Below are positions 6,729 through 7,549 of a DNA stretch of 64,000 nucleotides, one piece after another. Origin of the DNA: Candidatus Dojkabacteria bacterium. Lineage in GTDB: Bacteria > Patescibacteriota > Dojkabacteria > B142 > WJKM01. The stretch is from positions 234,852-298,851 of the forward strand of contig WJKM01000011.1 in the NCBI GenBank assembly GCA_014729085.1, in the 5' to 3' direction. The notes below the pieces were generated by a model. That model searched no databases. It had not been told where the DNA came from and saw only the letters and a list, made by a program, of their open reading frames with translations. The stretch's first letter is position 1, and each line of letters begins with the position of its first letter. Made by a program: the position numbers and the translations under genes.

Positions 6729-6803
6729 CGCGGGATGGAGCAGTGGTAGCTCGTCAGGCTCATAACCTGAAGGTCGTACGTTCGAATCGTACTCCCGCAA
6801 CCA
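6729..6803 (+). tRNA. tRNA-Met (CAU), probably initiator tRNA-fMet
   Basis: CGCGGGATGGAGCAGTGGTAGCTCGTCAGGCTCATAACCTGAAGGTCGTACGTTCGAATCGTACTCCCGCAACCA is very close to E. coli tRNA-fMet, including the C1:A72 mismatch. Anticodon loop CTCATAA. CCA is encoded. Confidence 0.8.
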
Positions 6804-7044
6804 GTTTTGGGAAATCTTCAGATGAAATACTTCATATATTGTTTATTATTACGGAAATTGGAAATTTTTTAAATTTACATTTTTCCGTACAAGCTGCCGA
6901 AATCCCGTTTTACGGGATAAAGGCAAATAATTCCGAGCACAGCGAGAATTATGTGCACATCCAAGAGAAATCCAAAGTTTCACTATTACGGTTATACAGG
7001 AAATCTTGAGCAGAGATTGAGGTATCACAATAGAGGAAAGGTGC
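6804..7044 (+). repeat. Direct repeat copy 1 (241 bp) immediately 3' of tRNA-Met; contains the 5' region of the GIY-YIG gene
   Basis: Near-identical (a few substitutions) to 7292..7532 when read directly from the sequence. Confidence 0.85.
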
Positions 7045-7313
7045 GAACCACAAATAGATTTAAACCTGTTGAATTGTTAGGTTACCGTGAATTTGAAACA
7101 AAGGAAGAAGCATTAGAGTTTGAGAAGAAATTAAAAAAGAGTGCAAGTGCAAGAAAGAAATTTATTAAAGAATTAAATGAGAATCGTCAGGCAGGTAACC
7201 TGAAGGTCGCGTGCCTGACAACCGTAGGTGGCAGGTACGTTCGAATCGCCGTGCCTGACATGAGTCATTCAGGCAGGTACTCCCGCAACCAGTTTTGGGA
7301 AATCTTCAGATGA
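6951..7313 (+). CDS. GIY-YIG nuclease-family protein (YhbQ/UPF0213-like), apparently frameshifted or 5'-truncated, with its 3' end running into tRNA-derived sequence
   Basis: HYYGYTGNLEQRLRYHNRGK...TNRFKPVELLGYREFETKEEALEFEKKLKKSASARKKFIKEL matches the YIGxTxNLxxRLxxHN core and tail of the small GIY-YIG family. The expected first strand (YVHIQ..., cf. YVYIL) lies in another frame just upstream (6947..6961). The last ~30 codons are encoded by the degenerate tRNA copy. Confidence 0.5.
   Translation: MCTSKRNPKFHYYGYTGNLEQRLRYHNRGKVRTTNRFKPVELLGYREFETKEEALEFEKKLKKSASARKKFIKELNENRQAGNLKVACLTTVGGRYVRIAVPDMSHSGRYSRNQFWEIFR
7196..7291 (+). pseudogene. Degenerate copy of the tRNA-Met 3' half (anticodon loop to CCA) carrying two inserted hairpin blocks
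   Basis: TAACCTGAAGGTCG + [26-nt insert] + TACGTTCGAATCG + [29-nt insert] + TACTCCCGCAACCA. The outer segments are identical to tRNA positions ~36-76. Both inserts begin C(C)GTGCCTGACA and end GGCAGG. Confidence 0.7.
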
Positions 7314-7532
7314 AATACTTCATATATTGTTTATTATTACGGAAATTGAAAATTTTTTAAATTTACATTTTTCCGTACAAGCTGCCGAAATCCCGTTTTA
7401 CGGGATAAAGGCAAATAATTCCGAGCACAGCGAGAGTTATGTGCACATCCAAGAGAAATCCAATGTTTCACTATTACGGTTATACGGGAAATCTTGAGCA
7501 GAGATTGAGATATCACAATAGAGGAAAGGTGC
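7292..7532 (+). repeat. Direct repeat copy 2 (241 bp)
   Basis: Same sequence as 6804..7044, offset 488 bp. Diverges after GGAAAGGTGC. Confidence 0.85.
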
Positions 7533-7549
7533 ATATAAGTTTCTTCTAA
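7439..7549 (+). pseudogene. Truncated second copy of the GIY-YIG gene (36 codons)
   Basis: MCTSKRNPMFHYYGYTGNLEQRLRYHNRGKVHISFF then stop. It is the copy-2 equivalent of 6951.., cut off where the repeat ends. Confidence 0.5.

Follow-up and report, generated by a model that had tools for sequence, protein, structure and literature searches.

Partial copies of a tRNA beside the complete gene are a familiar trace of genomic islands integrated by tyrosine recombinases, which use a tRNA gene as a site, bring a replacement tRNA part and leave the displaced partial copy as a direct repeat; to our knowledge, such islands rarely duplicate the tRNA 5' part. In REP/REPIN elements with RAYT and in IS200/IS605, short palindromic hairpins in mosaic arrays are tied to one small nuclease gene, and the RAYT and IS200/IS605 enzymes are HUH/Y1 transposases with covalent intermediates. 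The nuclease Slx1 requires Slx4 and carries a RING domain, and we know of no mobile-element context, palindrome or tRNA association described for Slx1, HIGLE or UPF0213 (YhbQ-type) proteins. SegB, which is encoded by phages, has more than 200 residues including a DNA-binding domain and cuts the duplex DNA of tRNA genes. T-even phages have free-standing GIY-YIG homing endonucleases, SegB among them, whose genes lie among tRNA genes (PMC2330249, PMC13096335); through SegB, a 718-bp tRNA+segB unit is amplified in tandem, along with a truncated copy of segB (PMC13096335). Cyanobacterial group I introns in the anticodon loops of tRNA-fMet carry a homing endonuclease of the PD-(D/E)XK type (bioRxiv 2025.07.03.662931). 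The Ssn nucleases, GIY-YIG enzymes of a single domain, bind hairpin repeats on the flanks of their own gene; a resemblance to an insertion sequence was pointed out by the authors, and tRNA is not mentioned in the paper (Chenal et al. 2025, PMC11893778).

The locus described here lies in a 64-kb window (the whole stretch of DNA that was analysed) of Candidatus Dojkabacteria. It is probably (at a rough probability of 0.6) a decaying copy, 1.6 tandem units in extent, of a minimal selfish cassette that belongs to a widespread tRNA-nested class. A complete cassette consists of a gene for a single-domain GIY-YIG protein of ~80-90 residues, a partial tRNA copy, and at least one GC-rich palindrome inside that copy, canonically CCTGCCTGCCGGCAGGCAGG. 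In the polarity of the window, the intact tRNA is followed by the nuclease gene, a few nucleotides of the anticodon stem/loop, a palindrome between nt 35 and 36, and the remaining tRNA 3' part. The mirror image, with a 5' tRNA fragment carrying the palindrome, the nuclease gene, and the intact tRNA, was found in other lineages. The features of the window locus are listed in Table 1.

Table 1. Features of the tRNA-fMet locus in the 64-kb window (L081, L083, and L207 are related Dojkabacteria loci)
Feature	Position	Strand	Evidence
Intact initiator-type tRNA-Met(CAT), encoded CCA	6729..6803	+	ARAGORN; Rfam RF00005, 65.4 bits
Spacer, tRNA to first GIY remnant	6804..6821	+	Sequence compared with L081, L083, L207
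GIY-YIG N-terminus remnant with internal deletion	6822..6856 (35 nt)	+	ATG AAA TAC TTC ATA TAT TGT TTA .. TTATTACGG = MKYFIYCL..YYG
Filler, no homology found	6857..6946	+	Sequence; perfect 7-bp stem, 6902-6908 with 6912-6918
GIY-YIG pseudogene, copy 1	6947..7183	+	PF01541 on corrected frame; HMM domain ~6957-7181
Probable right arm (cGTCAGGCAGG; TCGTCAGGCAGG) of a third, truncated hairpin at the anticodon-loop position	7184..7195	+	Comparison with L081, L083, L207
Pseudo-tRNA segment 1, ~tRNA nt 36-49, TAACCTGAAGGTCG	7196..7209	+	Alignment; exact-word search
Hairpin insert 1, CGTGCCTGACAACCGTAGGTGGCAGG, variable loop/T stem junction	7210..7235	+	Alignment gap block; motif search; DNA fold
Pseudo-tRNA segment 2, ~tRNA nt 50-62, TACGTTCGAATCG	7236..7248	+	Alignment; exact-word search
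Hairpin insert 2, CCGTGCCTGACATGAGTCATTCAGGCAGG, T stem 3' strand	7249..7277	+	Alignment; motif search; DNA fold
Pseudo-tRNA segment 3, ~tRNA nt 63-76, TACTCCCGCAACCA	7278..7291	+	Alignment; exact-word search
Truncated second unit, copy of 6804-7044 with 5 substitutions	7292..7532	+	Repeat search, 98%; alignment; HMM match 7409-7546

A single tRNA-Met(CAT) was placed at this locus by both ARAGORN and Rfam, and its C1/A72 mismatch and A11:T24 pair, read from the sequence, make it initiator-like; it is the functional copy. The repeat search paired 6789-7044 with 7277-7532 as direct repeats (98% identity, spacing 488), and five substitutions between the copies were counted in the pairwise alignment. 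The first GIY-YIG remnant matches the start of the L083 protein (MKYYVYCLIS..FHYYG) and recurs at 7310-7344. Besides this second remnant, the second unit holds ~30 codons from the start of the pseudogene, frameshifted as in copy 1. Its truncation point, 7532/7533, lies ~140 nt short of where the convergent rnpA gene ends. The original prediction, made from the sequence alone, had described an intact initiator-like tRNA-Met followed by a 241-bp segment that recurs with a period of 488 bp in a truncated second unit, and all three statements hold on the evidence given above.

The nuclease gene of the window is not intact. The first beta strand (NYVHIQEKSK) is encoded in one frame (6947-6976) and the remainder (FHYYGYTGNL...KELNEN) in the +1 frame; this frameshift, near 6976/6977, is common to both copies. 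There is no ATG where the relatives start, and the stop codon, which in the relatives lies inside the first hairpin, has been lost, so that the annotated ORF 6951-7313 (NCBI GF362_04505, Candidatus Dojkabacteria) runs through the tRNA piece. Since the nuclease gene of this genome is dead, the element here is a fossil and is unlikely to be active at present. The frame-corrected ORF matched PF01541 with E=2.9e-13 (50.3 bits vs a cutoff of 22.6), a domain also carried by the proteins of the relatives. The initial claims that the unit encodes a GIY-YIG nuclease and contains no integrase were thereby confirmed, the GIY-YIG gene being the only ORF of the unit; the degenerate state of the gene had been missed. 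The catalytic set (Tyr of strand 1, Tyr-x-Gly of strand 2, Arg and His of helix 1, and Glu) was invariant in 14 and 20 family members and is fully kept in the window copy. The AlphaFold2 model of a relative's protein (P0004; pLDDT 91.5) is a single domain with the element order E-E-H-H-E-H-H, comprising a three-stranded sheet with flanking helices. In the Foldseek search with this model, HIGLE, UPF0213, and Slx1 were on top, with I-TevI and UvrC lower; the closest solved structures were 1zg2 (UPF0213) by sequence (E=1.2e-14), and 7wme and Slx1 at the head of the Foldseek list. Slx1, HIGLE, and UPF0213 are thus closest to the cassette nuclease in both sequence and fold, and since Slx1 and HIGLE cut branched or structured DNA, this relationship fits a hairpin or cruciform substrate. 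No family was matched by the GIY-YIG protein in NCBIfam, and exact-protein look-ups of the window ORF, RnpA, the DivIC-like protein, and P0001 returned no entry on record.

For comparison, five Dojkabacteria relatives (L081, L082, L083, L207, and L179) were picked by protein similarity only (59-66% amino-acid identity). A scan of genome contigs with RnpA gave mostly distant relatives, typically with 25-40% identity, and no empty site (a close relative having this tRNA but lacking the cassette) was recovered. All five contain a tRNA-fMet, a spacer of 18-25 nt, an intact GIY-YIG ORF of at least 83 residues, and then ggctCA/palindrome/TAAcctg..; the corresponding database entries are 84-92 aa in length with no other domain. 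The palindrome of this group has the form CCTGCCTGAC..loop..GTCAGGCAGG. A hairpin-split tRNA piece was present in 5/5 relatives, and its further hairpins occupy the two positions known from the window. The extra partial unit is present in three of the five, probably in four. A second, truncated GIY-YIG copy follows in L082 and L207, and L083 repeats the spacer before the contig ends; the truncation points all differ. The downstream copy of L082 is 75% identical to its upstream copy, which is consistent with successive arrivals, although long divergence after a duplication might also account for it. With the hairpins removed, the pseudo-tRNAs matched the tRNA of their own genome at 40-41 of 41 nt (40/40 in L179 and 33/33 in L082), and the tRNAs of other genomes were less similar.

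The original prediction had recognised a second copy of the tRNA 3' part between the two units; the tRNA origin of this piece stands, but two hairpin inserts interrupt it in the alignment, and it therefore measures 96 nt, not ~41. These inserts, overlooked at that stage, are the most informative feature of the locus. Insert 1 (7210-7235) reads CGTGCCTGAC..GGCAGG, and its position is also occupied in L081 and L207; insert 2 (7249-7277) reads CCGTGCCTGAC..CAGGCAGG, and its position is also occupied in L082, L083, and L207. When folded as single-stranded DNA, insert 1 gave -5.4 kcal/mol (z = -2.0) and insert 2 gave -7.5 kcal/mol (z = -3.6). The motif CGTGCCTGAC occurs in the window in these two inserts only, and the tRNA-derived words of the three pseudo-tRNA segments have no other occurrence in the 64 kb. 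Upstream of the first segment, the short arm at 7184-7195 was found by the motif search as a reverse-complement match to CGTGCCTGAC. In the relatives, a hairpin is located here between CA and TAA of the anticodon loop, as in L083 (ctCA/CCTGCCTGCgtgactgcgtcagcaGTCAGGCAGG/TAAcctg); the left arm has been deleted in the window, and the remaining letters more likely represent the right arm of a truncated hairpin than the tRNA anticodon stem, judging by this comparison. The hairpins (7184-7277) lie directly 3' of the GIY-YIG gene. A genome-wide REP-like hairpin family in this organism was considered and dropped, there being no copies elsewhere in the 64 kb, as were palindromic footprints of hairpin-forming transposases, the inserts being constant in sequence and not palindromes of their flanks.

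The window element belongs to a large family whose members lie beside many different tRNAs, a point missed in the original prediction. The combination of a small GIY-YIG gene, a partial tRNA copy, a CCTGCCTGCCGGCAGGCAGG-type palindrome, and an intact tRNA recurs in other Patescibacteria, Bacteroidota, and Saganbacteria, next to tRNA-fMet, Arg, Leu, Gln, and Thr; three phyla and no fewer than seven tRNA species are represented. In a Moranbacteria-like population (L091, L208-L217) and in L103, L145, and L162, a tRNA-fMet disrupted at CA/TAA by a 20-nt palindrome is followed by the GIY-YIG gene, an intact tRNA-fMet, and one or two further partial tRNAs with the palindrome; their number varies by sample. 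Chitinophagales loci (L218-L223) contain tRNA-Arg(ACG), the GIY-YIG gene, and a tRNA 3' part whose T loop holds CCTGTCTGCCGACAGGCAGAG, in one, two, or three units depending on the sample. Such differences in unit number between metagenome assemblies could partly reflect repeat assembly, and some scaffolds contain N runs. In Echinicola (L224, tRNA-Arg(CCT)) and Saganbacteria (L225, tRNA-Leu(GAG)), the identical 20-mer lies in a 5' tRNA fragment, followed by the GIY-YIG gene and the intact tRNA. Locus L112 has GIY-YIG genes by both tRNA-Gln and tRNA-Thr, each with 5' tRNA fragments, and the hairpin in the tRNA-Gln fragment differs in sequence. Among the four IMG/VR loci closest by protein similarity, three (L226, L227, and L229) have the same design.

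The hairpins adjoin the GIY-YIG gene in nearly every related locus inspected, L228 being an exception. The pseudo-tRNA always matches the tRNA of its own genome. The palindrome is conserved far above the GIY-YIG protein, and its position differs by lineage (9/10, D loop, 26/27, 35/36, and T loop) with no common flank sequence. A universal target sequence of the palindrome was accordingly dropped, as the flanks differ between tRNAs. The hairpin motif occurred once in 582,644 bp of unrelated loci. A GIY-YIG gene was present within 600 bp of 13/58 short-loop palindrome matches, compared with 0/71 long-loop, chance-like matches; many solo palindromes with no GIY-YIG gene nearby were found in metagenomes with a pattern that required CA..TAA flanks, and these, like the varying position, count against the cassette reading. 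In their ORF extensions, 10 of the 270 proteins retrieved by protein similarity carried the palindrome in translation (LPAGRQ or PACRQA), several of them next to tRNA-derived peptides.

The architecture of the cassette is directly observed in these loci, and from it we infer a possible mode of propagation. The tRNA duplication suggests that the cassette was inserted into a tRNA gene. Entry could take place via break repair or single-crossover recombination on tRNA homology; the cassette would bring a replacement tRNA part, so that the essential tRNA would survive, and the functional tRNA is intact because one tRNA portion is present twice. The GIY-YIG gene has the same orientation as the tRNA and lies only 12-25 nt away in the closest cases, and the two are therefore probably co-transcribed. 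By analogy with the Ssn nucleases and their hairpin repeats, the nuclease probably acts on the palindrome: it may recognise it as a hairpin or cruciform and cut at or near it, as Ssn does at NTS/SRM hairpins, and such cutting would produce recombinogenic ends inside the tRNA homology. Tandem units might arise by re-insertion into the regenerated tRNA or by unequal exchange between tRNA repeats. The hairpins split the repeated tRNA homology into pieces of at most 14 nt, which should hinder deletion of the cassette by recombination. An intact tRNA regenerated by the cassette would stay a target, which is a point against this scheme.

The Ssn nucleases (SsnA; CDD cd10448) with their NTS/SRM repeats are the nearest described system, sharing with the cassette a single-domain GIY-YIG protein of ~80-95 residues and a conserved hairpin-forming repeat of 20-50 nt immediately beside the nuclease gene. 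Unlike the Ssn system, the cassette has its hairpins inside partial tRNA copies and its gene nested at a tRNA gene, and, as judged within the 64-kb window, there is no genome-wide spread of hairpins. The SRM motif HGTCWYN(0-2)YYVSBRHN(0-5)WNVSBRGN(0-2)RNCYNB had no match on either strand of the window and nine related loci. That the hairpins deviate from the published SRM motif and that none are dispersed elsewhere in the window count against the main reading, in which the nuclease acts much as Ssn does. The original prediction could match the element to no described family; the failure of the SRM motif and the silence of the Ssn paper on tRNA agree with this, although the Ssn nucleases with their hairpin repeats come near. 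Its alternative, a free-standing homing-type GIY-YIG element targeting tRNA-Met, is the better of its two readings as far as a tiny nuclease-carrying tRNA-Met element is concerned; however, the Seg-type architecture (N-terminal GIY-YIG and C-terminal DNA-binding domain) is absent from a protein of 80-90 residues that forms a single domain in the AlphaFold2 model, and an enzyme of ~80 residues with no DNA-binding domain is unlikely to recognise many tRNA sequences, which makes classical homing on naive tRNA genes doubtful. Moreover, the SegB element has neither a palindrome nor a partial tRNA duplication, and the cassette is chromosomal. Compared with integrase islands, the cassette has no integrase, measures only 0.3-0.5 kb, occurs in both 3' and 5' polarities, and always has the conserved palindrome in the displaced copy. 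It further differs from RAYT and IS200/IS605 in that a GIY-YIG hydrolase cannot transfer strands in their manner, and there is no HUH/Y1 gene at the locus. The group I introns of tRNA-fMet are likewise mobile elements tied to the initiator tRNA anticodon loop; in the cassette, however, no intron RNA was detected by Rfam, the functional tRNA is uninterrupted (ARAGORN), the insert is a palindrome of 20-34 nt, and the nuclease belongs to another family. An archaeal-type or group I tRNA intron was dropped, since the tRNA, a bacterial one, is intact and none of the intron models gave a match.

In every Dojkabacteria relative examined, the cassette occupies the same tRNA, which makes 6/6 Dojkabacteria-like genomes (the window and five relatives) with tRNA-fMet as the site. 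In each of the five relatives the GIY-YIG ORF is intact, and its protein is more conserved than the flanking host proteins (59-62% identity between relatives vs 26-52%). This leaves room for a long vertical residence in Dojkabacteria and even for a role beneficial to the host. In Neisseria, transformation is modulated by Ssn nucleases, whose hairpins are clustered close to particular genes; the locus might accordingly be a domesticated Ssn-type module serving the host, for example by restricting or shaping the recombination of incoming single-stranded DNA at the tRNA locus of naturally competent ultra-small bacteria, with the tRNA fragments as by-products of break repair. We consider this unlikely, in view of the pseudogene in the window, the truncated downstream copies in L082 and L207, the copy number of 1 to 3, and the failure of the SRM search motif; the many unrelated tRNAs, used in both polarities and always with a tRNA duplication, are a signature of insertion into a gene. 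The classic site-specific integration, twice in tandem, that was put forward in the original prediction is very improbable. The catalyst would have to be the tyrosine recombinase whose gene lies 700 bp upstream (5144-6022, minus strand), acting in trans; this ORF does match Phage_integrase (PF00589, E=5.7e-29), and a tRNA 3' part that recurs as a direct repeat is what attL and attR classically leave behind. However, synteny of the recombinase with DivIC and tRNA-fMet extends to relatives with host proteins of only 26-52% identity, and its persistence over such distances makes the enzyme look like a chromosomal Xer. In addition, no recombinase was found within the inspected 1.5-2 kb flanks of the Chitinophagales, Echinicola, and Saganbacteria cassettes, the mirror-image polarity duplicates the tRNA 5' part, and the conserved palindrome would have no role.

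There is hardly more reason to regard the tandem duplication as an artefact of short-read assembly hiding one real unit. The source is a metagenome-assembled genome, repeats of ~250 bp can be mis-assembled, and N gaps occur in some related scaffolds; however, the copies differ at five positions, unit 2 ends in unique sequence, and the independent assemblies of distant relatives (L082, L207, and probably L083) show a unit plus a partial unit with different truncation points. Since the same layout is found in distant Dojkabacteria, the extra partial unit is not an assembly artefact, and even a single unit would leave the hairpin-split tRNA piece and the cassette. A function at the RNA level, whether as a processed RNA (mRNA stabiliser or terminator), a tRNA-like decoy, or a removed intron-like insert, likewise appears remote. 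The tRNA piece probably shares a transcript with the tRNA and the nuclease gene, the stop codon of the relatives is inside the first hairpin, and 7170-7300 folds as RNA slightly more stably than its shuffled counterparts (z = -1.9). On the other side, the Rfam search of 6000-8500 returned the tRNA alone, with no group I intron and with one sub-threshold chance match on the opposite strand of the tRNA; no terminator-like site was found; and the fragments lack half of the tRNA. For promoters the same scan was uninformative, with 8 promoter-like sites vs 4.8 expected. Across phyla, the palindrome keeps an identical sequence irrespective of the flanking tRNA, and this suggests that a protein recognises it, over a purely structural RNA role.

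The selfish, tRNA-nested cassette thus remains the preferred reading. A bolder proposal, which we advance tentatively and at odds somewhat below even, is that these loci constitute a new minimal class of mobile elements of 0.3-0.5 kb, in which a structure-specific GIY-YIG enzyme of ~80 residues and its cognate 20-nt palindrome colonise tRNA genes across phyla with no integrase or transposase, the universally conserved tRNA sequence providing homology arms and the replacement copy keeping the tRNA intact. In a literature search that covered subscription papers thinly, neither the palindrome nor small GIY-YIG genes nested at tRNAs were found described, so that novelty is not proven.

Stand-alone GIY-YIG proteins of ~80 residues formed 7,989 clusters (50% identity) at E<=1e-10 in a profile search, and most are annotated only as "GIY-YIG nuclease family protein". 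Through their fixed link to a near-invariant 20-nt palindrome and to split or duplicated tRNA genes, this family acquires a biology that is concrete and testable. The link points to a nuclease-plus-hairpin cassette that ranks among the smallest self-contained genetic elements, and it carries the partnership of Ssn and hairpins over to elements nested at tRNAs. Such a cassette would account for stray tRNA fragments, tandem arrays of small ORFs, and over-long ORF calls by tRNAs in Patescibacteria and Bacteroidota, and would show how an essential gene can be occupied by an element with no splicing. The compact enzyme with its candidate recognition sequence may also have potential for the development of DNA tools. 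If the proposal of a new mobile-element class is true, it would assign a function to much of the orphan small GIY-YIG family, with its several thousand members, in Bacteroidota and Patescibacteria.

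The AT-rich window (about 31-39% G+C) carries a tRNA-Met gene identified as initiator-like by a C1/A72 mismatch and an A11:T24 pair. A repeat search recovered the tandem duplication proposed there (6789-7044 and 7277-7532; 98% identity, spacing 488, 5 substitutions in the alignment). The second unit is cut off as predicted: past 7532, the sequence is unrelated to unit 1. The duplicated tRNA 3' part was likewise confirmed, with three stretches (7196-7209, 7236-7248, and 7278-7291) being exact copies of tRNA nt 36-76 and having no further copies within the 64-kb window. Its 55 additional bases form two inserts, 7210-7235 and 7249-7277, which start with C(C)GTGCCTGAC and finish with GGCAGG. 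Within the 64 kb, the 10-mer CGTGCCTGAC is confined to these inserts; 7186-7195 holds a copy with one mismatch on the opposite strand. Folded as ssDNA, the inserts gave -5.4 kcal/mol (z = -2.0) and -7.5 kcal/mol (z = -3.6), respectively. A mismatch-free 7-bp stem closed by a 3-nt loop (ATCCCGT TTT ACGGGAT), whose sequence has no relation to the CTGCC palindromes, was also observed at 6902-6918 and 7390-7406, within the unassigned filler between a GIY remnant and the pseudogene.

Features of the window locus and extents of the duplicated tRNA segments
Feature	Position	Strand	Remark
TraG/VirD4-like ATPase	2350-4890	+	weak
tRNA-Ile(TAT)	4900-4974	-	
Xer-type tyrosine recombinase	5144-6022	-	
DivIC/FtsB-like protein	6245-6682	+	
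tRNA-Met(CAT)	6729-6803	+	Rfam 65.4 bits
Repeat region	6804-7532		
rnpA	7673-8038	-	convergent
rpmH	8072-8257	-	
Duplicated tRNA segment, Dojkabacteria	nt 28-76		palindrome removed
Duplicated tRNA segment, Chitinophagales	nt 37-76		palindrome removed
Duplicated tRNA segment, Echinicola	nt 1-33		palindrome removed
Duplicated tRNA segment, Saganbacteria	nt 1-32		palindrome removed
Duplicated tRNA segment, L112	nt 1-26		palindrome removed
Duplicated tRNA segment, Moranbacteria-like group	about nt 1-68		palindrome removed

Among the flanking genes, the 846-residue TraG/VirD4-like protein weakly matches the type IV coupling-protein domains TrwB_AAD_bind and TraG-D_C, ends 10 nt ahead of the tRNA-Ile gene, and could be a component of a DNA-uptake/transfer apparatus or of an integrated element. 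The rare-anticodon (TAT) tRNA-Ile adjoins the Xer-type recombinase, a pairing kept in the related locus L207 (1186-1260). The region 8421-9824 (+) encodes an unusual fusion of a hydrophobic N-terminal region, a NUDIX domain (PF00293), and a YbaK/ProX-type aminoacyl-tRNA editing domain (PF04073).

The ORF 6951-7313 is identical to the NCBI protein GF362_04505 (Candidatus Dojkabacteria, Patescibacteria). Its predicted GIY-YIG identity was verified by a PF01541 match (E = 2.9e-13) of the frame-corrected translation NYVHIQEKSK/FHYYGYTGNLEQRLRYHNRGKVRTT..., in which the catalytic Y, Y-x-G, R, H, and E are all retained; it tested as a family member, the one shortfall being that the window's gene is broken. 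The gene is readable only with a +1 shift near 6976/6977, common to both copies, and has AAT at the position of the relatives' ATG. The stop codon, which in the relatives sits within the first hairpin, is lost, so the annotated ORF reads across the tRNA piece and ends at 7313. At 6822-6856, 35 nt remain of another GIY N-terminus (MKYFIYCL..YYG), and this remnant is repeated at 7310-7344; the locus is therefore the wreckage of several generations of GIY gene, and its cassette is a fossil. No further GIY-YIG genes were found elsewhere in the 64-kb window.

The intact form was observed in Dojkabacteria relatives, for which GIY homologues with 59-66% identity were traced to their contigs (L081, L082, L083, L207, and L179). 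The Xer-DivIC-tRNA-fMet synteny is preserved in L081 and L207, tRNA-Ile(TAT) also in L207, and the downstream rnpA in L082. In all five, tRNA-fMet is followed by an 18-25 nt spacer, an intact GIY ORF of at least 83 residues, and the sequence (c)aggctCA / CCTGCCTG(A)C..loop..(GT)CAGGCAGG / TAAcctgaagg..., where the tRNA restarts at the anticodon stem and the palindrome is placed precisely between anticodon nt 35 and 36. Four of the five contain additional hairpins, which occupy the window's positions (following GGTCG and AATCG) or, in L081, sites 5 nt from them. L082 and L207 then repeat the spacer and add a second GIY copy that is truncated; in L083 the spacer recurs before the contig runs out, and L081 has a single unit. 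The tandem duplication might have been an assembly artefact, but one unit plus a partial unit recurs in independent assemblies with differing truncation points, which argues against it. The two GIY copies of L082 share 75% identity, consistent with successive arrivals, although duplication followed by long divergence may also account for them.

The GIY proteins are 59-62% identical, whereas the host proteins have diverged much further (44-52% for Xer, 26-34% for DivIC, and 31% for RnpA). With the hairpins removed, the best match of each pseudo-tRNA (displaced partial copy) was the tRNA of its own genome (41/41, 41/41, 40/41, 40/41, 40/40, and 33/33), including lineage-specific compensatory changes in the T stem. 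These matches point to renewal or homogenisation of the tRNA-derived segments within each lineage, with recurring hairpin positions; one possibility would be heteroduplex repair in which palindromes loop out and escape correction. A separate arrangement without a GIY gene was noted in L081 (3720-3990), where two 5'-half copies, each ending in ..ACTCA followed by CCTGC(C/T)TG.., precede the elongator tRNA-Met (3830-3905), and GCAGGCAGG, TAA, and a hairpin-split 3' part follow it. This is either an intact tRNA within a split palindrome or a pair of decayed cassettes with opposing polarity; the corresponding tRNA is clean in L207 and L179.

Metagenomes were scanned with the anticodon-loop palindrome as the pattern. 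Near most of the many matches, neither a GIY gene nor a tRNA context was found. A subset (L086, L091, L103, L145, L162, L171, and L179) comprised tRNA-fMet copies with the perfect 20-mer CCTGCCTGCCGGCAGGCAGG between CA and TAA and, alongside, a distant GIY gene whose protein is 27-34% identical to that of the window. A GIY gene lay within 600 bp of 13 of the 58 short-loop matches versus none of the 71 long-loop matches, which served as the chance control, and a single occurrence of the hairpin motif turned up across the 582,644 bp of unrelated control loci. A Moranbacteria-like group has mirror polarity: disrupted tRNA-fMet, GIY, intact tRNA-fMet, and a trailing repeat (25-nt spacer plus partial tRNA with palindrome) in one or two copies depending on the sample, in gap-free assemblies.

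Other loci were picked by protein similarity alone. The Chitinophagales carry tRNA-Arg(ACG), 12 nt, a 79-residue GIY, and a tRNA 3' part with CCTGTCTGCCGACAGGCAGAG in the T loop, in one, two, or three tandem units varying by sample. Echinicola sp. 20G has tRNA-Arg(CCT) nt 1-26, the identical 20-mer, nt 27-33, GIY, and the intact tRNA; Saganbacteria have this design at tRNA-Leu(GAG). In locus L112, GIY genes adjoin tRNA-Gln and tRNA-Thr with 5' tRNA fragments, and the tRNA-Gln fragment contains a hairpin of different sequence. Among the four closest IMG/VR matches, the design is present in three (L226, L227, and L229) and absent in L228. In L229 (~820-900), ARAGORN makes no call for the tRNA copy downstream of GIY; because a different small hairpin (ccgagggcaaagcccgagg) occupies its anticodon-loop position, this supposedly functional copy may itself be interrupted.

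The extents of the duplicated segments in the six lineages show that the duplication edge usually lies at the anticodon stem-loop, with the palindrome inside the displaced copy; palindrome sites in the tRNA vary (9/10, D loop, 26/27, 35/36, and T loop). GIY gene and tRNA are co-oriented in every locus showing both. The GIY family comprises 7,989 clusters at 50% identity (E<=1e-10). Of 270 similarity-retrieved family proteins, 10 have the palindrome in translated form (LPAGRQ or PACRQA) within N-/C-terminal ORF extensions, adjoined in several by tRNA-derived peptides. Four ORFs (P0122, P0123, P0127, and P0128; 157-214 residues) each hold two GIY-YIG stretches and are probably tandem cassette units that have come to be read as one gene.

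Some palindromes are solo, without a nearby GIY gene, and part of them lie within short tandem arrays of the CATAACN heptamer, which the search pattern did not require. Such 20-nt palindromes occur in L099 (~1627), L154 (~827), L187 (~131), and L127 (~4570), and no GIY gene was found in these loci; the arrays share the CA/TAAC context with the tRNA-fMet anticodon loop. In L126 (~1090) and L134 (~24), a palindrome with a one-base longer loop follows ..NAIWHGLM in apparent coding sequence, which suggests that the hairpin could land within genes too.

Insertion into a tRNA gene of an element carrying the replacement part would duplicate that part around the inserted gene; such a duplication would follow from break repair, or from a single crossover, that used tRNA homology. 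The palindrome is identical across phyla, with proteins only ~30-40% identical and differing flanking tRNA, and this constancy is taken as evidence that the GIY protein may recognise it. For the relative P0004, the AlphaFold2 model (pLDDT 91.5) is closest to HIGLE, UPF0213, and Slx1, a group in which some enzymes cut structured DNA. The single-domain GIY-YIG enzymes known as Ssn nucleases bind a hairpin repeat flanking their own gene and cut ssDNA beside it (PMC11893778). Given the fold likeness and this precedent, hairpin- or cruciform-directed cutting is proposed, which would leave recombinogenic ends within the tRNA homology. Re-insertion into the regenerated tRNA, or else unequal exchange, would yield the tandem units; a precedent in which tandem tRNA+nuclease units are generated by a GIY-YIG enzyme is the T-even phage protein SegB (PMC13096335). 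The window hairpins limit uninterrupted tRNA homology to 14 nt, and slower loss of the cassette by recombination would be expected from this.

A selfish cassette is the favoured reading, at a probability of roughly 60%; any particular mechanism is held less firmly. Several points count against it: no empty site (tRNA without the cassette) was recovered, the palindrome's position in the tRNA varies, the hairpins fail to match the published SRM motif, and solo palindromes lack a nearby GIY gene. If cutting acts on naive tRNA genes, moreover, the regenerated intact tRNA should stay a target. The cassette may instead have a host-beneficial, Ssn-like role, which is kept in play because every Dojkabacteria relative examined has it fixed at tRNA-fMet and all five relatives keep it intact. 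Classic site-specific integration into the tRNA gene, suggested originally, was not supported: the unit lacks an integrase, as had been noted, and so is not an integrase island. A tRNA intron was ruled out, as the tRNA is intact and intron RNA is absent. The alternative of a free-standing GIY-YIG element at tRNA-Met holds as regards a small tRNA-associated nuclease; a Seg-type homing endonuclease was excluded since the protein has no DNA-binding domain, and the likeness to SegB is tRNA association and tandem amplification. In working, the Ssn/hairpin module appears the nearest analogue. The statement that the element could not be matched to a described family is partly borne out: no description of the palindrome or the tRNA-nested arrangement was found in the literature searched, and the closest described system is that of the Ssn nucleases and their hairpin repeats. 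The tRNA-nested GIY/palindrome architecture thus appears undescribed so far, and the fossil copy in the window exposes it as widespread.
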